Source of the DNA: Candidatus Nanoarchaeia archaeon
Lineage (GTDB): Archaea > Nanobdellota > Nanobdellia > Woesearchaeales > SKGA01
DNA length: 51,645 nt
Direction of reading: 5' to 3'
Assembly: GCA_028691765.1 (NCBI GenBank)
Contig: JAQUYS010000002.1
Span: forward strand, 1-51,645
Shown in pieces: positions 3,141 through 51,348 of the stretch. The translations under genes were made by a program, and so were the position numbers. Within the stretch, counting starts at the first letter, position 1, and every line of letters begins with the position of its first letter. A model generated the notes under the pieces. It was not told the origin of the DNA. It did no database searches and worked only from the letters and a program-made list of their open reading frames with translations.

Positions 3141-3150
3141 CCTATAAAAA
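3141..3150 (+). promoter_or_regulatory. Candidate TATA box for infB
   Basis: cctataaaaa lies about 30-38 nt upstream of ATG 3179, in the divergent spacer shared with the SpoIIM-like gene. Confidence 0.3.
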
Positions 3151-3178
3151 GCAAAGATTATTCCAATTACTGATTAAA

Positions 3179-4951
3179 ATGCCTATAAGAAGTCCAATTG
3201 TGTCTGTTTTGGGTCATGTCGACCATGGTAAATCTTCAGTTCTAGATGCAATTAGAGATTCTAATATTCTTGCTACTGAGGCCGGAGCAATTACTCAAGC
3301 TATTGGTGCGTCCATTGTTCCCATTGAAACTATTAAATGTAAATGTGGTGATTTGCTTCAAAAAATGAATATTTCTTTGAAAATTCCTGGGTTGTTGTTT
3401 ATAGATACTCCTGGTCACGCTGCTTTTACTTCTTTGAGAAAAAGAGGAGGAAGTTTGGCCGACATTGCGATTGTTGTCATTGATATAAATGAAGGTTTTA
3501 GACCTCAAACTTTTGAAGCGATTGATATTTTACGTGCGGCTAAAACTCCTTTCGTAATTGCTGCGAATAAAGTTGATCTTTCGCCTAATTATAGAATTCC
3601 TCGAGAAATAAATACTCCAATTTTAAAACAAATTAATGATCAAGAACCTAAAGTGATCACTCATATTGAAACTAAGTTATATGAACTTGTTGGTGCGATT
3701 CATGAACGGTTCGGCATATCTGCGGAACGTTTTGATAGGATAGATGATTTTACTAAACAAATCGCAATCATTCCTATTTCTGCTAAAATGAAATTGGGCT
3801 TGTCTGAATTATTAATGGTGATTAGTGCGTTAACTCAAAAATATCTTGAAAATAATTTACAAGTAGATGTTTCAGGTTATGCTAAAGGTTCTATTTTGGA
3901 AGTAAAAGAAGAACAAGGTCTTGGCACAACTCTTGACGTTATTATTTATAATGGTACTTTGAGTGTCGGAGATTGTGTTGTTATTGGCGGTATTGATACT
4001 CCGGTTGTTACTAAAGTTCGGGCTTTATTTGAACCTGCTCCGTTAAGTGAAATGAGAGATAAAAAATCTAATTTTAGTCCTGTTAAAAAAGTGGTCGCAG
4101 CGACTGGTGTTAAAATAAGTTGTCCTGATATTGATGATGTTCTTTCGGGGATGCCTATCAGGTCATGTGAGAATACACTCAAAGGCATTGAAGAAGCCAA
4201 AATTGAAGTTCAAAAAGAAATTGAAAACGCAAAAGTTAAAACTGTTCCTACAGGAATATTAATTAAAGCAGATAATATTGGAAGTCTTGAAGCCTTAGCA
4301 CATATTTTGGGAGAGAAAAAAATTCCTATTAGAAAAGCTTTAGTTGGACCGATATCTAAAAAAGATTTAATTGATGCAGAAGCTAGTTTTGAAGAAGACC
4401 GCTTAAATTCTGTGATTCTTGGATTTAATGTTCCAAATGAGAAATCTACTGAAACTGTAAAGATAATTACTAATGATGTTATTTACCACATTATTGAAGA
4501 TTATGAAAAATGGGTTGAAGATGAAAAGAAAAGAATAGAGCAAGAAAAATTAAAAGACTTATTTAAACCGTGTAAAGTTAAAGTTCTTCAGCATTGTATT
4601 TTTAGACAATCCAATCCTTGTATTGTTGGTGTGGATGTTCAAATGGGCATTCTAAAACAAAATATGGATATGATTAAAAAAGATGGTTCAAAATGTTCTC
4701 ATATAAAAAGTATCGGTTCTGGTAAAGATAATTTATCCTTTGCAGAGAAAGGAAGTCAAGTTGCAATTGGTTTACCAGGAGTTACTGCGGGACGACAATT
4801 AAATGAAGAGGATGTTTTATATTCGGATCTTAATGAAACTCAATATCGCGCATTAAGAGATAATAAGAAATTTTTAAGTGAAGATGACATTGAATTGTTG
4901 AAAGAAATTTCAGAGATTAAGAGAAAACAAAATCCACTTTGGGGTGCGTAA
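3179..4951 (+). CDS. infB: Translation initiation factor aIF5B (IF-2 family GTPase)
   Basis: RSPIVSVLGHVDHGKSS (G1), FIDTPGHAAF (G3), ANKVD (G4). The 590-aa length and domain order are typical of archaeal aIF5B. Confidence 0.95.
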   Translation: MPIRSPIVSVLGHVDHGKSSVLDAIRDSNILATEAGAITQAIGASIVPIETIKCKCGDLLQKMNISLKIPGLLFIDTPGHAAFTSLRKRGGSLADIAIVVIDINEGFRPQTFEAIDILRAAKTPFVIAANKVDLSPNYRIPREINTPILKQINDQEPKVITHIETKLYELVGAIHERFGISAERFDRIDDFTKQIAIIPISAKMKLGLSELLMVISALTQKYLENNLQVDVSGYAKGSILEVKEEQGLGTTLDVIIYNGTLSVGDCVVIGGIDTPVVTKVRALFEPAPLSEMRDKKSNFSPVKKVVAATGVKISCPDIDDVLSGMPIRSCENTLKGIEEAKIEVQKEIENAKVKTVPTGILIKADNIGSLEALAHILGEKKIPIRKALVGPISKKDLIDAEASFEEDRLNSVILGFNVPNEKSTETVKIITNDVIYHIIEDYEKWVEDEKKRIEQEKLKDLFKPCKVKVLQHCIFRQSNPCIVGVDVQMGILKQNMDMIKKDGSKCSHIKSIGSGKDNLSFAEKGSQVAIGLPGVTAGRQLNEEDVLYSDLNETQYRALRDNKKFLSEDDIELLKEISEIKRKQNPLWGA

Positions 4952-5263
4952 CTGAGAGCGGGATTCGGGAAGCGGATTTCAGCAAGGCATACAGCATTAA
5001 GTAAGGCATGCAGAATTTGGGATTCGTTACAGAATTCAATTGTGAATTAAACTCGAAGAGTTTATATTCGCCACGACTCGCCTAGTGTAACTGGCAGAGA
5101 AAACAAAATCCACTTTGGGGTGCGTAACTGAGAGCGGGATTCGGGAAGCGGAATGCAGAGTTCAGCAAGGCATGCGGAAGGCTGAAAGAGTGAAGCAGAA
5201 GACAGGAACCAGCACGCAGCGTTCAGTACAACATGCAGAATGTGGGATTCGTTACAGAATTCA
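4920..5263 (+). repeat. Imperfect tandem duplication of the infB 3' end plus a GC/purine-rich downstream spacer (copy A 4920-5038, copy B 5096-5263)
   Basis: 57 nt at 4920-4976 (last 10 infB codons, the stop, and ctgagagcgggattcgggaagcgga) recur exactly at 5096-5152. ttcagcaaggcat occurs at 4978-4990 and 5161-5173. atgcagaat(t/g)tgggattcgttacagaattca occurs at 5008-5038 and 5233-5263. Copy B carries extra inserts. Confidence 0.85.
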
Positions 5264-27003: not shown

Positions 27004-27645
27004 TTATTGGAATTTAGTATTCATTCGTTTTGATAATGCTTTTCTTACACCAGCTTTACTAATTACAAATACATTTATTCCATTACCTGATGCGTTATCT
27101 CTTTGTATTGCTGCTTCAACACATTCTGTTGCTAATTTGATTCCTTCTTCTTCAGACATATTTTCTTTGTATTTGTTTTCTAATATTCCGTACGCGAATG
27201 TGCTTCCAGAACCTGTTGATTTAAATTTATCTTCTTTATTTAATGACCCATCTGGGAAGATATCGTATAAATGTAAACCATAGTTATCTGCTCCTGCAAC
27301 TAAGAAATGTGCAATTCCTGGCATCATTGATGGTTGTCTTATTACAGAATAAACCCAATTTCGTAATAAATTCACACCTTCGTGTGTTGTTATTTCTCTA
27401 TTGTTTCTGATTTTAAGCATTTTTAGTTCAGATTTTAAGTATTGCATTAAGATTTGTATTGTTGATACGCTTCCTGCTGTAGTTACGGCCATTGTATCGC
27501 TAACTGGGATTACTTTGTCAACTACAGAGTCAACTATTAAATTTCCTGCTGTTGCTCTTGTATCTGCTGCTAATATTACGCAGTCTTTACAAACTATACC
27601 TATTGTTGTAGTACCTGTTTTCATTTCTTCAGTCAAATTATTCAC
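27004..27645 (-). CDS. psmB: Proteasome subunit beta
   Basis: Propeptide followed by TTTIGIVCKDCVILAADTRATAG (Thr1 nucleophile, D17, K33 context DKVIPV). Also STGSGSTFAYG. Confidence 0.92.
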   Translation of the reverse strand: MNNLTEEMKTGTTTIGIVCKDCVILAADTRATAGNLIVDSVVDKVIPVSDTMAVTTAGSVSTIQILMQYLKSELKMLKIRNNREITTHEGVNLLRNWVYSVIRQPSMMPGIAHFLVAGADNYGLHLYDIFPDGSLNKEDKFKSTGSGSTFAYGILENKYKENMSEEEGIKLATECVEAAIQRDNASGNGINVFVISKAGVRKALSKRMNTKFQ

Positions 27646-44150: not shown

Positions 44151-44906
44151 TTAGAACTCTTGAAGCGTTTGAATTAATTTTGATGCTAAGAAAGAAGTTT
44201 TATTTTCAATGTCTTTTTTTGGATTGACTTCAACGATGTCTATTAATTTTATGTTTTTGGTTTGGATTATTTTTTGGAGTATGTTGAAAAGATCTTTTTG
44301 TTTGAATCCGTTTGGTTCGGCATATCCTGTTCCTGGTGCAATGTCTGAATCGAAAACATCTATGTCTATGGAAAGGTAAGTTGGTTGGTCACAGAAGGAG
44401 ATTAATTGTTGGGTGATTGTGTTTAAATCTTGGGATTTTATGTCGCTCATGTAAATGCAATGGATTAATTTTTTGCATATGTATTCTGTTTCTATTTTAT
44501 CTGAATTTCTAATTCCAACCAGAAGTATGTTTTGTGGGGGGATTATTTTTTTTTCTATTAATACTTTGAGGTAATCTTCGTGTGTAGGTGGGACAAAGTT
44601 GTTCACTAAGTCTGGATGTGCGTCGAATATTAAAAGTTTAAAGTCTTTGTTGTTTTTTGAAAATCCTTTTACTGAAGGATATGTTATGGAGTGGTCCCCT
44701 CCTAAGAGTATTGCTTTTTGATTTAGGTTTGAGATGAAATTTTCTATGTTTTTATGGCTTAGAGAGATGTTTGATTCTTCGACAGGTATTTCTTCTATTT
44801 GAAAGGAAGCGGCGTCTAAGAAAGAAATTATTTTATTCGGTGCTTCGTTTGAGCCATTCCCTTTTCCTAATCCTCCGCCACTAAAGGGGATTTTAATTAG
44901 TTTCAT
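44151..44906 (-). CDS. speB: Agmatinase/arginase-family ureohydrolase
   Basis: Mn-binding motifs GGDHSITYP, FDAHPDL, SIDIDVFD. It overlaps the decarboxylase stop by 4 nt. Confidence 0.85.
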   Translation of the reverse strand: MKLIKIPFSGGGLGKGNGSNEAPNKIISFLDAASFQIEEIPVEESNISLSHKNIENFISNLNQKAILLGGDHSITYPSVKGFSKNNKDFKLLIFDAHPDLVNNFVPPTHEDYLKVLIEKKIIPPQNILLVGIRNSDKIETEYICKKLIHCIYMSDIKSQDLNTITQQLISFCDQPTYLSIDIDVFDSDIAPGTGYAEPNGFKQKDLFNILQKIIQTKNIKLIDIVEVNPKKDIENKTSFLASKLIQTLQEF

Positions 44907-45925
44907 TTTAGTTTTGTTGGGATTTCTTCTAAATCACAAAAGCTTGTTGTAAAATTATATGCTCCTGCATTTAAGAATGTTATGGTATCTCCTACTTTGG
45001 GATTGTTTAGATATACTTTGTATCTGAAGAGATCCAATGAACATGGTGTGAGTCCTTTTATGATGTAATGATTTCCCGTTTCTTGTTCTCCTTTTACTAG
45101 TAATTTTACAGGTACTATTAAGGCGTCCATGTCTGAATTATATACTGAAGCGTTAACTATTATGGTGTTGCTGTGTATTGCGATTATTTGTGTGTGTAGT
45201 TTGACTGCCGGAGCGGATATGTATCTTCCGGGTTCAATCATTAGTTCTATGTTGTTTTTATTTAGGAACGATTTTAATTCTTGGATTTTTTTAAATATTG
45301 AATCAAATACTTTTATGTTTGTGTTGGCGTATTCTGAAGGAAGTCCTCCTCCTATGTTTAATATGTCTATGTTGTTAAATATTTCTTGGGAAAAGGTGTT
45401 TTGAAGTTCATAGGCTAAATTCCACTCAGCCATGTTTTGTGTTTTTCTGTGAAAATGTATTCCTAGTTTGTCTATATTTTTGTGATTTTTTAATTCTTGG
45501 ATTTTTTGTGAGATTATGTTTGATTCCATTCCAAATACGTAATATTTTTCGGTTTTTATTGTGTTTTCTTTTAATTTCATTCTTAATAGAAGTTGTATTT
45601 TGATGTTTGTTGAGGTTATGTATTGAATTAGAATTTTTAAATCTGTTTCGTTGTCGACTATGAATTTTGTAATATTTTGTGTTGTTAGTTGGTTTAATTC
45701 TTCTTGGTTTGTTCCTTGTTATAGAAATATAACTCTTGATTTATCTTTTATGTGTTTTAACTCGTTTTTGAAGTGTATGCTAAATTGTGAGTTTGTATTT
45801 TCTTCTAATATTGGGGTGATTAGAGGATTTGTTTTGGAAGAATATGATATCTTATCTACATATGGTTCTAAATATTTGTATTGGTCTAAAATTATTTTTT
45901 TGGAAAGTTCGAAATAAGGAGTCAT
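44903..45925 (-). pseudogene. PLP-dependent Orn/Arg/DAP-family (group IV) decarboxylase interrupted by one in-frame TAA (45719-45721)
   Basis: ORFs 45719..45925 and 44903..45580 are in the same frame. My hand translation of 45718-45581 is open (QGTNQEELNQLTTQNITKFIVDNETDLKILIQYITSTNIKIQLLLR). The joined 340-aa product carries SYSSKTNP (PLP Lys), GIHFH, GGGLP, EPGRY, TPCSLDLF, AGAY. Confidence 0.8.
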
Positions 45926-46982: not shown

Positions 46983-47396
46983 TTAAATCAAATCTTCAGG
47001 TTTAAAATGAGGATGAATATCTTTTAATTGGTTGAAGTGTTTATCTCGCGTAATTAATATTGCATTATTATCTCTTGCAACGATTGCGTGTAAAACATCT
47101 CCTGTTGGTAAATTTCTTTCTTTTGCAATTAATTTTGCTTGTTGTTTTTGTTTTTCAGAAATATTTATTTTTATTAGATTATTTTTGAAAGGAGTCATCA
47201 TACCATTTATTTCGGAAGTTGAATATCTTGTACTAAGTTCTTCCATTAAAAGAGTTGTAATTAATAAGGGGTATTGTTTTAATTTAATTAGAATGAATAA
47301 TTTAGTTGCGAAAATCCACAAAGGTTCATTTTTGTAACCTTTTCTTTCTTCAATTAAATCCATCCAAATTGATGTGTCAATATAGTACGCATTCAT
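46983..47396 (-). CDS. PIN-domain protein (VapC-like ribonuclease)
   Basis: YYIDTSIW (first Asp), LLMEEL (Glu), GDVLHAIVARDNNAILITRDKHF (distal Asp residues). 137 aa. Confidence 0.75.
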   Translation of the reverse strand: MNAYYIDTSIWMDLIEERKGYKNEPLWIFATKLFILIKLKQYPLLITTLLMEELSTRYSTSEINGMMTPFKNNLIKINISEKQKQQAKLIAKERNLPTGDVLHAIVARDNNAILITRDKHFNQLKDIHPHFKPEDLI

Positions 47397-47506: not shown

Positions 47507-47755
47507 ATGGTGACTGAAATGATAAGTTTGAAGCTAGAAGGAAACTTTTTGAAAGAGATTGATAAGGTTGTTCAAAAAGAAAATTATCACAATAGAACTG
47601 AATTCATTCGAAATGCTTTGAGAGAGAAAATAGATAAAGAAAAATATAAAGAAGCAATGGAAGAGATTAAAAAATCCATATTAGGAAAAGCTAAACGAAA
47701 AACTACTGAAGAAGAATATGAATATATGCGAGAAAATGCATATAAATTAATTTAA
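47507..47755 (+). CDS. Ribbon-helix-helix (CopG-like) protein, divergent from the PIN gene
   Basis: MISLKLEGNFLKEIDKVVQKENYHNRTEFIRNALREKI shows the beta-strand/helix/helix pattern of RHH_1. Confidence 0.7.
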   Translation: MVTEMISLKLEGNFLKEIDKVVQKENYHNRTEFIRNALREKIDKEKYKEAMEEIKKSILGKAKRKTTEEEYEYMRENAYKLI

Positions 47756-48112
47756 ATCATAATTCCAGAACCCTAGTTTTCCGTTGATTTCTATTGGTTG
47801 TATTCTTTGGGGATTTTTTAGAATGAATCCGTACTTTCCCCAAGAGGAAGTTGCTTTGTGTTTATCTTGGTCTAAAGTGAAGTCGTTTGTTTCTTCGTAA
47901 TTTTTTATGTTTGTGAGGGTTATTTTTCCTAGAATTTTTCCTGTTGGGAGATTTTCGTAGTTGAATTTTTTCATAGCTTCTTTATCTGGTGTTTTTGAGG
48001 CATGAATTAAGAATTCTCCTCTAAATTTTGTATTCCAAGTTCTGAGTTCAATGGTTTTCTTACCTGAGAGAATTAGTTCAACGTAAGGTTGTTTTATAGA
48101 TAAAACCTTCAT
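47747..48112 (-). CDS. ASCH (PUA-like) domain protein
   Basis: MKVLSIKQPYVELILSGKKTIELRTWNTKFRGEFLIHASK is the typical ASCH N-terminus. 121 aa. Confidence 0.8.
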   Translation of the reverse strand: MKVLSIKQPYVELILSGKKTIELRTWNTKFRGEFLIHASKTPDKEAMKKFNYENLPTGKILGKITLTNIKNYEETNDFTLDQDKHKATSSWGKYGFILKNPQRIQPIEINGKLGFWNYDLN

Positions 48113-48155: not shown

Positions 48156-48482
48156 TTATTCTGTTAGTAAATCTAGAATTTTATCTAATTTTCGATTGAT
48201 TTCTTTTAGGTCATCATTAGAATCATTTCTTGATGGTCTTGATGGTCCTTCTTTTCTAAAACAATCGCTACACAAAACTGGTTTTTCACCTGTTGGTTTG
48301 AATGGAAGTTCGCATCTTGAACCGCATTTATCGCATGTTGCTATATGTTTCTCAAAACTTCCTCTACCGCCACTACTTGGTCTACCTCTACCTGAGCTTC
48401 TTTCGCTACTTCTACTACTTGAGCCGTACTCACTTCTACTTCTTCCGGAACTTCGTCCAGAACTTCTACCTTCGAATGCCAT
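48156..48482 (-). CDS. CxxC-x17-CxxC zinc-ribbon protein with an Arg/Ser/Gly-rich N-terminus
   Basis: CDKCGSRCELPFKPTGEKPVLCSDCF preceded by GRSSGRSSGRSRSEYGSSSRSSERSSGRGRPSSGGRG. The GC-richer codons are explained by the low-complexity region. Confidence 0.75.
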   Translation of the reverse strand: MAFEGRSSGRSSGRSRSEYGSSSRSSERSSGRGRPSSGGRGSFEKHIATCDKCGSRCELPFKPTGEKPVLCSDCFRKEGPSRPSRNDSNDDLKEINRKLDKILDLLTE

Positions 48483-48772: not shown

Positions 48773-49801
48773 TTATTTGTTGACTTGTGCATTTATGTCT
48801 GCTATTGTAGTTTGAATTTTTTCCATTAGGTTCTGTTGTCTTGTTATTTGCAATTTGTTATAATTGATGAATTTATCAATTCCTTTTTGCATTATGGTTT
48901 TCAGAGCTTCTTCTATGTTTGTTTGTATTAGTTTTCGTTCTTCCACCAACTGATTTAGAACACTTATATTGCAAGTTCCTCTAAAATACTCTTCTGTGTG
49001 TTCTGTGTACGTTTGCTTTATTTTAAAATAATCTCGCATATCTGAATCAAATGAATAATAAAAGGTATCAATTAATTTTTTATATTCTCTCGCGAACAAA
49101 TGTTGAATTAATATTTTCTCATTTAGATTTTCTGTTTTTATTACTTCTGCCACATATTCTCTAGGTCCCCTTTCTTCATCGAAAGAAATATCGGGATGGT
49201 ATAATCTTGAGACACCTTCAGGAGTCACAAATCCGAATTGAAATTTGTCATTTACAAAACTATCTAATGAGCCATAACGCTCTAAATCATAAAACGAACT
49301 GAATGATTCAACTAAATCGAATTTATTTGGATCTTTACCTAGTTTCTTGGAACATCTACGGAATTCATCCGCATAAATTGAACCGGAACCGTCGAAAATA
49401 ATTTCTTCTCGTTCAACAAAATTGTGTTCTTTACTTACTGCTATTCTATATAGGAGAGGTTGCCCTGTTTCATGATGCCCTCCGACAAGAAATATTGCTG
49501 TTGAACCGCAAATATTTTTTTCTTTGGCTTTTTCAAATAATTCGTACACAAAATGATTTACTGGTTGAGGGTTGTTTGTTACTGAATTTATTGCTGTTTT
49601 TGCTAGATTTGGATTTCCGGCAATTACAACCAAGTTGTCGCCTTTATTATATAATTTTTGAACAGAATCATATTTTGTAGAGGTTTCTTCGACAGAACCC
49701 ATGCTATCTGCGATTAGAAATATTTTGTCTCTGAAGCACATTCCCCCTATGTTTGTCATAAATGGTGAAAATTTGTTTAGATTTATAAATCTTTTCATCA
49801 C
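48773..49801 (-). CDS. Divergent proteasome-beta-like (Ntn-hydrolase fold) protein with a ~140-aa helical C-terminal extension
   Basis: MMKRFINLNKFSPFM|TNIGGMCFRDKIFLIADS...VQKLY...LVVIAGNPN...IFLVGGHHETGQPLLYRI...IIFDGSGSIYA parallels the window's own PsmB: TTTIGIVCKDCVILAADT...DKVIP...AVTTAGSVS...HFLVAGADNYGLHLYDI...FKSTGSGSTFA. The track start 49801 is GTG; ATG is at 49798. Confidence 0.6.
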   Translation of the reverse strand: MMKRFINLNKFSPFMTNIGGMCFRDKIFLIADSMGSVEETSTKYDSVQKLYNKGDNLVVIAGNPNLAKTAINSVTNNPQPVNHFVYELFEKAKEKNICGSTAIFLVGGHHETGQPLLYRIAVSKEHNFVEREEIIFDGSGSIYADEFRRCSKKLGKDPNKFDLVESFSSFYDLERYGSLDSFVNDKFQFGFVTPEGVSRLYHPDISFDEERGPREYVAEVIKTENLNEKILIQHLFAREYKKLIDTFYYSFDSDMRDYFKIKQTYTEHTEEYFRGTCNISVLNQLVEERKLIQTNIEEALKTIMQKGIDKFINYNKLQITRQQNLMEKIQTTIADINAQVNK

Positions 49802-50058: not shown

Positions 50059-51348
50059 TTAAACCATCAAATATTTATATAATGGTATAATTTTTATTTT
50101 CTTGTTTTCAACAATTAATTCGTCTTCTTCGTCTAAGGTTAGTATAATTCCTTCTTTTAATTTATATTCACTCATCGCTTCTAACAATCCATTAATTTCT
50201 CTTTGTTTGGTTTTTGTATCTTTTAAATTCTCGCATACTTGTATTGCTTCTTTTATTTTCAAACCTTCTCTTATTACAAAATCACATTCGAATTTATTTT
50301 TGTGATAATAAATATCTTTTCCATTTGATTTAAATTGAAGAAAAACCACATTTTCAATAATTCTTCCTAAATCTTTAGAAAAGGAAAATGCCAAGGTGTT
50401 TCTTAAGCCGGTATCAATAAAATATATTTTTCTTGGTGTTTGTATTTGTATTGTTTCTTTTACAGAATAAGAATATTTTTTCAATTGAAAAACAAGATAT
50501 GCATTTTCCATTTGATTTAAATATTCTTTTACAGAATCTACTGAAATGCCTAATGCTTTTGAAATTTTATTGTAGCTAAATAAGGTTCCTATGTTTGTTG
50601 AACAAAATAAACCTAGATCGTTTAATTTTGATTCTTCTTTTATTTTTCCTAAAGATAATATATCTCTAAATAAGATTCCTTCATAATAATCCCTGTGTCT
50701 TTTTTCATTTATTACTTGATTCTCTTCTTTTACTACTTCAGGAAATCCACCAAATTGAATAAAATTTTGGAAGTTATGTTTTAATTCTTCTATGTTTGAG
50801 CTGGAAATATTTATATTTTTGAATTTTAAATATTCTTTGAAATCTACAGGAAATACTTCTATGTGAAAAATCCTTCCTGTAAGTAATGTGGCTGTATTTG
50901 ATTTGAGCAAAGAATTATTTGAACCAGTTAAAATAAATTTAATATTCGGGTTGGTATCGTAAATTGCTTTTATTTGATTGTGCCAATTGTCGATTACTTG
51001 TATTTCATCTAAAAATAGATAAATTTTATTTTTTGGATTGGTTATTTCTTTAAATGTTGATAGAATATTTTCGATGGTTTTCAAACTATTTTCTATTGGA
51101 ACATCAAAATTAAAATAACAAATATTTTCTTTAGGAACTTTGTTTTTTAACAATTTATTGATTAATTGGTACATAATTGTAGATTTTCCTGATCTTCTAA
51201 CTCCCGTTAATAAAATAATCTCTTTTGAAGAAAGATATGTGGATATTTTGTTAAGATATGTTTCTCGATTTATGCCTAAAAAATTTTCTGAAATAGTTCC
51301 TTCAAAAGTCCAAGGATTTAATTTTTGAATTGTTTGTTTTAGTGTCAT
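50059..51348 (-). CDS. AAA+ ATPase of the AAA_14/DUF4143 type
   Basis: Walker A LTGVRRSGKST, Walker B IYLFLDEIQ, LLTGRIFHIEVFPVDFKEY, and a C-terminal DUF4143-like region ending with the nuclease-like ECDFVI. Confidence 0.8.
   Translation of the reverse strand: MTLKQTIQKLNPWTFEGTISENFLGINRETYLNKISTYLSSKEIILLTGVRRSGKSTIMYQLINKLLKNKVPKENICYFNFDVPIENSLKTIENILSTFKEITNPKNKIYLFLDEIQVIDNWHNQIKAIYDTNPNIKFILTGSNNSLLKSNTATLLTGRIFHIEVFPVDFKEYLKFKNINISSSNIEELKHNFQNFIQFGGFPEVVKEENQVINEKRHRDYYEGILFRDILSLGKIKEESKLNDLGLFCSTNIGTLFSYNKISKALGISVDSVKEYLNQMENAYLVFQLKKYSYSVKETIQIQTPRKIYFIDTGLRNTLAFSFSKDLGRIIENVVFLQFKSNGKDIYYHKNKFECDFVIREGLKIKEAIQVCENLKDTKTKQREINGLLEAMSEYKLKEGIILTLDEEDELIVENKKIKIIPLYKYLMV

Follow-up and report, generated by a model that had tools for sequence, protein, structure and literature searches.

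Proteasome-like N-terminal nucleophile (Ntn) hydrolases span forms from degradative barrels to the monomeric protein ligase connectase, which is now a biotechnology tool. Besides the proteasome itself, 22 further families of proteasome homologues have been described, including the archaeal coiled-coil family ACC (Fuchs, Alva and Lupas 2021, PMC8665760). In the proteasome, HslV and BPH the helices H1-H4 mediate the contacts between subunits, and propeptides are found only in proteasome beta and HslV (PMC8665760). Connectase (PMC7980362) together with ACC, WPH, PHI and several PMI families occurs in archaea (PMC8665760), and the view that archaea encode only PsmA and PsmB while the extra homologues are bacterial, still held by a first-pass annotation of the DNA studied here, is therefore outdated. 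In this study we analyze a stretch of 51,645 nucleotides (hereafter the window) from Candidatus Nanoarchaeia archaeon (assembly GCA_028691765.1, contig JAQUYS010000002.1, positions 1 to 51,645), focusing on a gene on its reverse strand, at 48773..49759, whose product resembles the proteasome beta subunit and ends in a long helical arm. The window also carries a canonical PsmB (27004..27645), which is 76% identical to the PsmB of a Candidatus Woesearchaeota metagenome-assembled genome (MAG) and has its other named relatives in Woesearchaeota, Nanoarchaeota or Nanobdellota; the window is from a DPANN archaeon.

A BLASTP comparison of the protein with the PsmB of the window is not significant (E 1.0), and single-sequence searches of Pfam, NCBIfam, PADLOC and the PDB (phmmer) give no significant match, so the resemblance to the proteasome is visible at the level of profiles and structures only. 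Run exhaustively against 1.84 billion representative proteins, phmmer (E<=0.001) yielded 62 clusters at 50% identity, and the 62 cluster representatives make up the family alignment (A2), with a mean column identity of 22%; a word-indexed profile search of a large protein database returned 14 proteins. The protein had been called an orphan, which cannot be maintained in view of 62 relatives with the same architecture at this cluster level. Family members have 293-373 aa and match over most of their length, with the exception of three shorter sequences, at least two of which are fragments.

With a profile of four sequences the best match in the PDB was just PSMB9 at E about 1, and significance in the PDB profile searches was reached only with the profile of 62 sequences. 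Among all PDB sequences, the hidden Markov model (HMM) of A2 then matches over 45 different sequences of 20S beta subunits along with a few of alpha subunits (best E 3.9e-9), where its positions 2-157 align to residues 1-145 of mature yeast PRE3 and human PSMB6, placing Thr2 on Thr1. Applied to the six-frame open reading frames (ORFs) of the window as well as of the fetched loci, the same HMM picks out the PsmB of the window (E 7e-7). By hhalign, A2 aligns to this PsmB alone with a probability of 94% (E 1.3e-7), and to a profile (A4) of 27 PsmB sequences from Woesearchaeota and Nanoarchaeota with a probability of 97.7% (E 1.6e-12) over 181 columns at ~18% identity. In the alignment to PsmB alone, the Asp of ADS falls on Asp17, the Lys of QK on Lys33 and the Gly of (T/A)G on Gly47, and FLVGG lies opposite FLVAG and DGSGS opposite TGSGS; the motifs first noticed in comparing the protein with PsmB are real and well beyond chance. 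The family is closest to true 20S beta subunits at the profile level.

The structure model points in the same direction. AlphaFold2 (AF2), run on A2, gave a predicted local distance difference test score (pLDDT) of 95.3 and a predicted template modelling score (pTM) of 0.92. Residues 1-210 (49130..49759, reverse strand) form the Ntn, proteasome-beta-fold domain according to AF2, Foldseek, hhalign and the hmmsearch against the PDB. In the model two beta-sheets are flanked by the helix pairs H1/H2 (50-59, 67-81) and H3/H4 (127-139, 149-163), and the elements follow one another as S1-S2 hairpin, strands, H1, H2, four strands, H3, H4, two strands and an H5-like helix (198-207), which is the complete proteasome-beta topology without insertion in the core. 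The check by structure prediction and Foldseek that had been proposed for the fold turned out positive: each of the best 50 PDB matches is a 20S beta subunit (E from 6e-10 to 3.5e-8, TM (target) from 0.60 to 0.76). Among viral structures (BFVD) the named significant matches are phage proteasome- or HslV-like proteins, and most of the others are unnamed. As modelled, the window protein is a true proteasome-beta-fold (Ntn hydrolase, alpha-beta-beta-alpha sandwich) protein.

Compared with PsmB (PF00227, MEROPS T1), the protein thus shares the fold, the core strands with H1-H5 and the positions of Thr1, Asp17, Lys33, Gly47 and Gly-Ser129-Gly, and 20S beta is its best match in profile and structure searches alike. 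Unlike PsmB, it has no PF00227 match, no propeptide and no linkage to psmA, and it bears an arm of ~120 residues and a motif of its own, VNDKLQxG, in the Asp166/Ser169 region; most homologues carry an S1-S2 insertion as well. A canonical 20S beta subunit was rejected as its identity in view of the missing PF00227 match, the missing propeptide and the extra arm. One might still imagine an extra beta-type subunit which co-assembles with PsmA and PsmB in a variant 20S particle, its arms projecting from the barrel surface, since the best matches are genuine 20S beta subunits, especially of the beta1/PSMB6 type, the gene coexists with PsmB in the same genome, and the C-termini of beta subunits face outward (PMC8665760). 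We regard this as quite improbable, because the identity to PsmB is only ~18%, a propeptide is lacking, neither psmA nor psmB is linked to the gene in any locus, and the family is rare among Woesearchaeota, with 62 clusters versus more than 1,200 PsmB relatives found.

The equivalents of Thr1, Asp17, Lys33, Gly47 and Gly-Ser129-Gly are kept almost throughout the family. Residues are numbered here on P0001, the public gene-caller product for the window gene, with the initiator Met as 1; counts are over the 62 representatives, and all codons lie on the reverse strand. The predicted N-terminal nucleophile, Thr2 (codon 49754..49756; Thr1 after removal of Met), is Thr in 54 of 62, and in more with corrected gene calls. 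Asp18 (49706..49708), aligned to Asp17 of PsmB, is Asp in 57 and Glu in three; Lys35 (49655..49657), in a Q-K-L motif and aligned to Lys33 of PsmB, is Lys in 60; and Gly48 (49616..49618), which corresponds to the oxyanion-hole Gly47 and aligns to the Gly of TTAG in PsmB, is Gly in 60. The counterpart of the proteasome G-Ser129-G, Gly124-Ser125-Gly126 (49382..49390), aligned to GSGS of PsmB, is conserved in 62, 52 and 53 representatives, respectively. The spacing from Thr to Asp in the window protein is 16 residues, the same as in PsmB, and most homologues have 5-25 additional residues inserted in the S1-S2 hairpin. A conservation check of the Thr1, Asp17 and Lys33 equivalents had been suggested with the original prediction, and these figures bear it out. 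A family signature, V-N-D-K-(L/F)-Q-x-G (residues 169-176, 49232..49255; Val 59, Asn 53, Asp 51, Gln 60 and Gly 56 of 62), occupies the loop and strand that hold Asp166/Ser169 in proteasomes, and is followed by (L/I)-x-H-P. Asp171 and Gln174 were considered as the equivalents of Asp166 and Ser169, for which the hhalign register gives no support.

That the exact catalytic set is kept at a mean column identity of 22% argues for an active enzyme, and judged from its sequence the protein is almost certainly a proteasome-like Ntn enzyme whose catalytic set is intact. The opposite reading, a protein that has lost catalysis, merely retains the fold and acts as a structural element, scaffold or regulator, could appeal to the uncertain Asp166/Ser169 equivalents and to the loss of residues in some paralogues, such as P0055 with its Ser1 and with GSG changed to GAA; it appears very improbable beside the near-universal Met-Thr, Asp17, Lys33, Gly47 and Gly-Ser-Gly at ~22% mean identity, which argue for selection on catalysis, and all of which the window protein has.

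Whether the Thr is exposed depends on the gene start. The first-pass annotation took a 342-codon ORF with a GTG start at 49801 (48773..49801, reverse strand), in which the Thr stands after a short leader. P0001 has 328 aa and begins at the ATG at 49759, 14 codons inside the GTG ORF, with the N-terminus MTNIGGMCFRDKIFLIADSMGS (MTNIGG); the revised gene (328 codons plus stop, 48773..49759, reverse strand) therefore starts ATG-ACA (Met-Thr-Asn-Ile-Gly-Gly), and is supported by the family HMM (E 1.2e-82) and the AF2 model. Across the family, 51 of the 62 representatives have a Met/Leu/Val-Thr N-terminus, and in a further three, whose calls are over-long, M-T-x-(I/V/L) appears a few residues in. 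Another three, beginning MAY..., are over-short calls; the longer cluster members P0069-71 begin MTNIMAY..., which covers two of the three (P0053 and P0058). The 14-codon "leader" of the window (49760..49801, reverse strand; GTG-ATG-..., MMKRFINLNKFSPF) is at odds with homologues that start Met-Thr, and encloses a TATA-box-like TTTATAAA (49782..49789, reverse strand), 23-30 nt upstream of the ATG, with a purine-rich AAAAGA 5' of the box. This extension is not conserved, and the family, with its Met-Thr starts, shows no propeptide of the kind that canonical beta subunits cleave off autocatalytically at Gly(-1)/Thr1.

Comparable TATA-like boxes (TTTATAAA, TTTATATA or TTTAAATA) stand 5' of the Met-Thr codon in seven of eight homologue loci checked (L001, L005, L007, L013, L014, L016 and L018). 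Those of L001, L005, L007, L013, L016 and L018 lie 30-46 nt upstream, and L014 has AT-rich TATA-like matches as well; a Shine-Dalgarno sequence, GGAGG or AGGTGA, is sometimes found between the box and the start codon. A scan for bacterial-type promoters and terminators gave nothing above chance. We adopt the ATG at 49759 because Met-Thr starts are family-wide, over-short calls are extended within their clusters, and a TATA-like box lies upstream. The true start is thus most likely this ATG, with Thr directly after the initiator Met and without propeptide, so that the claimed leader peptide is most likely not part of the protein; MMKRFINLNKFSPF is very probably an untranslated promoter or 5' region. 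By the standard geometry of archaeal promoters, the TTTATAAA box would be a TATA element giving a leaderless or short-leader mRNA. Wrong public starts are common in the family (P0003 with L005 6975, P0032, P0043, P0053, P0058 and P0067) and hide the N-terminal Thr; among the over-long calls are MNVLK-MTNIGG and VKNRG...-MTHIGAF, and among the over-short ones MAY... in place of MTNIMAY....

Downstream of the core, the C-terminal arm of ~120 residues (211-328; 48776..49129, reverse strand) was modelled both within the full protein and alone. It consists of three long helices at 216-259, 265-291 and 294-327 (44, 27 and 34 residues), and when modelled alone with 24 homologous tails it reached a pLDDT of 90.2. 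Foldseek of the arm against the PDB found nothing significant (best E 0.94), and the weak matches are generic long antiparallel alpha-hairpins, such as BAR domains, EmrA, LipC, the arm of seryl-tRNA synthetase and SMC arms. What is conserved across the family is the presence of the arm and a few aromatic positions (Tyr202, Tyr234 and Tyr300). The arm is a family-specific helical element matching no known family, as had been noticed of the tail from the outset. Anbu and WPH likewise have a helical extension beyond the core, and that of Anbu mediates coiled-coil contacts between subunits (PMC8665760). The arm of the window protein is much longer than these extensions; Anbu is bacterial, and is absent from the sequence and structure matches listed.

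From these elements we propose the following mechanism. The protein would be a catalytically competent member of the MEROPS T1-type Ntn hydrolase superfamily, working alongside the canonical PsmB of the same genome, and translated from a leaderless or nearly leaderless mRNA starting at the ATG at 49759. Methionine aminopeptidase tolerates Thr in the penultimate position, and many members of HslV carry Thr directly after the initiator Met. Removal of Met1 by this aminopeptidase would expose Thr1, and since Thr follows the initiator Met, this removal could activate the protein without autocatalytic cleavage of a propeptide, as is the case for most non-proteasomal homologues. The free alpha-amine and the hydroxyl of Thr1, with Asp17 and Lys33, would then act on a peptide or amide bond in the manner of the proteasome. 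We further suggest an oligomeric enzyme. In analogy to the H5 coiled coils known from Anbu, WPH and ACC, its arm would mediate oligomerisation or gating or bind a partner.

For the quaternary structure, a groundwater contig (L024) is of interest, which carries tandem paralogues at 3143..4171 and 4203..5234. The first, P0033, starts MTYVG, and the second, P0055, starts MSHVS (Ser1) and has Gly-Ala-Ala in place of Gly-Ser-Gly; the two are reminiscent of a pair of active and inactive subunits and may form a hetero-oligomer. Because H1-H4 are all present and such tandem paralogues exist, the enzyme is probably oligomeric, which seems to us the more likely reading.

As a whole, this reading, of a hydrolase that depends on Thr1, becomes active once Met is removed, works independently of the adjacent ATPase and is probably both a peptidase and an oligomer, is given a probability of about 0.6. 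Several points weigh against it. PF00227 is not matched by single sequences, even at E<=10 for four family members, while the PsmB of the window scores 173.7 bits. The Asp166/Ser169 equivalents are not clearly conserved, the family having its own VNDKLQxG motif there, where the hhalign register is of low confidence. Peptidase activity cannot be told from ligase or other amidase activity by sequence, and the connectase ligase has the same triad. The leaderless start is read from sequence motifs alone, and the monomer pTM of 0.92 fits a self-contained monomer with the arm packed on the core.

The most serious alternative is a monomeric, substrate-specific transpeptidase, ligase or amidase like connectase, in which the arm would lie over the active site or shape it and would select a single specific protein substrate. 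Connectase (DUF2121, PF09894) is an archaeal proteasome homologue too, has Thr1 and lacks a propeptide. It proves that this active site can run chemistry other than proteolysis, since the set of Thr1, Asp17 and Lys33 drives a ligase in this monomeric enzyme (PMC7980362, PMC8665760). The confident monomer model fixes the orientation of the arm (pTM 0.92), no unfoldase partner is conserved, and one subclade is syntenic with genes of the RNA-modification and ribosome-biogenesis type (Methyltransf_30, U32 and a RIO-type kinase), although this synteny is among close relatives only and the kinase gene is convergent, not operonic. Unlike the window protein, connectase lacks H1/H2, has a two-helix S3-S4 insertion and is confined to methanogens; as the window protein has H1 (50-59) and H2 (67-81), no insertion after S3 and no match to PF09894 (DUF2121), connectase itself was rejected as its identity. 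Its closest sequence and structure matches are moreover ring-forming beta subunits, and the tandem paralogues on L024 suggest hetero-oligomers. Taken together, a connectase-like enzyme is unlikely, and we prefer the oligomeric Thr1 hydrolase.

The genomic surroundings of the gene raise another question, whether an ATPase partner is involved. Adjacent upstream, ~300 bp from the protease gene and on the same reverse strand, lies an AAA_14+DUF4143 ATPase (50059..51348). The same-strand run continues through the protease with a 53-aa ORF, a 108-aa protein with a Ser/Arg/Gly-rich low-complexity N-terminus (GRSSGRSSGRSRSEYGSSSRSSERSSGRGRPSSGGRG) and a treble-clef zinc finger (48156..48482, reverse strand; PF23477, E 2.6e-14), and an ASCH-domain protein (47747..48112, reverse strand) with a weak match to PADLOC PDC-M11B (E 2.8e-5). 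Next come a ribbon-helix-helix (RHH) gene (47507..47755), which is convergent to the ASCH gene with overlapping ends, and the adjoining PIN gene (46983..47396). The neighbours had thus been recognised well in the first-pass annotation, except that the RHH-likeness of the 53-aa ORF is weak (RepB/RHH-like, E 0.009, below the Pfam cut-off). Beyond the RHH/PIN pair follow housekeeping genes, namely those for deoxyhypusine synthase, an apparently split pyridoxal phosphate (PLP)-dependent decarboxylase, an arginase-family protein, a GatD-like asparaginase and GatE. The decarboxylase, of the Orn/Arg type, is divided into ORFs of 225 aa and 68 aa (44903..45580 and 45719..45925, reverse strand), the former matching only positions 131-247 of the PF02784 profile and the latter lying just upstream; this may reflect a frameshift, a pseudogene or an assembly error.

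It had been proposed that the protease may be the peptidase or effector of a two-gene, HslUV-like system with the ATPase, perhaps in defence or stress. The two genes are indeed adjacent on one strand ~300 bp apart, in surroundings with an accessory flavour (PIN/RHH, ASCH and Zn-ribbon), and the ATPase matches a candidate defence family, PADLOC PDC-S01, over nearly its full length (E 6e-120), with a weak Mrr_cat-like match at its C-terminus. PDC-S01, however, is defined in PADLOC as a single-gene candidate system; in the PADLOC scan only the ATPase and, weakly, the ASCH protein matched, and the protease did not. The GC content of the ATPase gene is ~0.25, that of the protease gene 0.31-0.33 like the local mean and the genome, and only the ATPase and the PIN/RHH genes fall slightly below the local mean; a check of the supposed accessory island found no tRNA or integrase boundary. 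The protease gene also has a putative TATA-like promoter of its own in the intergenic gap.

The survey of gene neighbourhoods comprised 15 other non-redundant loci. All-vs-all BLAST of their ORFs found an AAA_14/DUF4143 gene beside the homologue in none of the 15, and no neighbour family shared beyond close relatives; the 53-aa ORF, the Zn-ribbon protein and the ASCH protein of the window do not recur beside homologues there, nor does any other window neighbour. These loci are dominated by housekeeping genes: thermosome and D-aminoacyl-tRNA deacylase next to P0002; a ZIP transporter, DNA ligase and Cdc6/Orc1 next to P0003, P0004 and the homologue on L011; a methionine aminopeptidase-type M24 protein, DUF429, GAPDH and PGK next to P0031; and Methyltransf_30, a U32 peptidase and a convergent RIO-type kinase next to P0053, P0058 and P0065. 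In the shorter "ADGL" subclade (281-318 aa; L014, L016 and L018) synteny is conserved, with Methyltransf_30 upstream and the convergent RIO1-type kinase immediately downstream, and the U32 peptidase is near the family gene in two of the three lineages; this may reflect the mere relatedness of the genomes.

Because conserved linkage is lacking, PDC-S01 is a single-gene match and the GC contents differ, the idea of an ATPase partner is unsupported, and the two-gene system, largely refuted by the missing linkage, is the least credible of the readings considered. The role in defence or stress fares no better, given a protease without PADLOC match, no viral copies in a narrow-pattern scan of IMG/VR and homologue loci made up mostly of housekeeping genes. 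The missing ATPase partner agrees with earlier work, in which the newly described proteasome homologues likewise had no co-occurring AAA+ partners (Fuchs et al. 2021, PMC8665760). The protease thus appears to act independently of the AAA_14/DUF4143 ATPase, its place beside genes of mobile or defence type being incidental. HslV (ClpQ), with the same catalytic set and as a homo-oligomeric Ntn protease, is still the nearest mechanistic model, but it is bacterial, has ~175 aa and no C-terminal arm, and is encoded beside HslU. An organisation of the HslVU type was rejected for want of a conserved ATPase neighbour, and no HslV chain is among the best 60 HMM matches against the PDB or the best 50 Foldseek matches.

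Regarding the distribution, the named family members are Woesearchaeota or an unclassified "archaeon", and the 27 clusters looked up are mostly metagenome singletons, none of them with a RefSeq WP_ accession. A narrow back-translated pattern, made from a sub-alignment of 15 sequences, found 4 loci in GTDB, 5 in metagenomes and 0 in viruses; in IMG/VR, scanned with this narrow pattern, there was no viral copy of the family. Two of the GTDB matches lie in Woesearchaeota MAGs. The other two, on L009 and L012 (CAZYAB010000014.1 and CAZMDB010000040.1), come from third-party MAGs with the label "uncultured Methanosarcinales", one of which has the P0002 locus. The copy on L009 scores identically to the P0002 loci under the family HMM, and the contigs of P0002 are otherwise DPANN-like; the label or the binning of these two MAGs may be wrong. 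As to annotation, P0031 (L013 6001..7080) is labelled "20S proteasome alpha/beta subunit" by JGI, and the other members seen are "hypothetical" or unnamed.

Compared by description only, ACC is the closest known family. Like the window family it is archaeal and uncharacterised, with a proteasome-like core bearing the catalytic residues, no propeptide, a C-terminal helical or coiled-coil extension and no AAA+ partner; the descriptive features of ACC, namely archaeal origin, proteasome-like core and long C-terminal helices, are all found here, inter-subunit coiled-coil pairing aside. The representative of ACC is WP_161937350.1 (KEGG OC.1179207; Fuchs et al. 2021, PMC8665760). ACC has members with WP_ accessions and comprises 17 sequences at nr90 from Euryarchaeota, Crenarchaeota and other archaea, in contrast to the window family, with no WP_ accession in its 27 looked-up clusters and names of Woesearchaeota or "archaeon" only. 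The lack of RefSeq members among these clusters and a distribution centred on Woesearchaeota speak mildly for a separate family, possibly a sister to ACC.

In summary, the sequences describe a Thr-protease-like enzyme family that is real, uncharacterised and probably active. It is a further case of a phenomenon described in 2021, and a family already named if it proves to be ACC; the current understanding is not overturned, because such homologues, a "wealth" of them, have been known since that year. More tentatively, and with ACC compared by description only, it might be a DPANN-restricted branch not described before, separate from ACC as well as from the 21 remaining families of Fuchs et al. 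Its long antiparallel arms would then build a novel quaternary structure, homo-oligomeric or, as the tandem paralogues on L024 hint, hetero-oligomeric, and the enzyme would degrade or process proteins without an unfoldase in symbiotic archaea with reduced genomes. The family stands out in that it occurs in very small DPANN genomes which already keep a canonical PsmB, and combines the full catalytic set without propeptide with a conserved arm unlike anything solved. Pfam, NCBIfam and PADLOC have no entry for it, and its members are nearly always annotated as "hypothetical". Its definition by the MTN-I start, ADS/ADG, QKL, GTG, DGSGS, VNDKLQxG and HPD would improve the annotation of archaeal metagenomes, and each uncharacterised branch of these hydrolases is a candidate for a new quaternary structure or chemistry.

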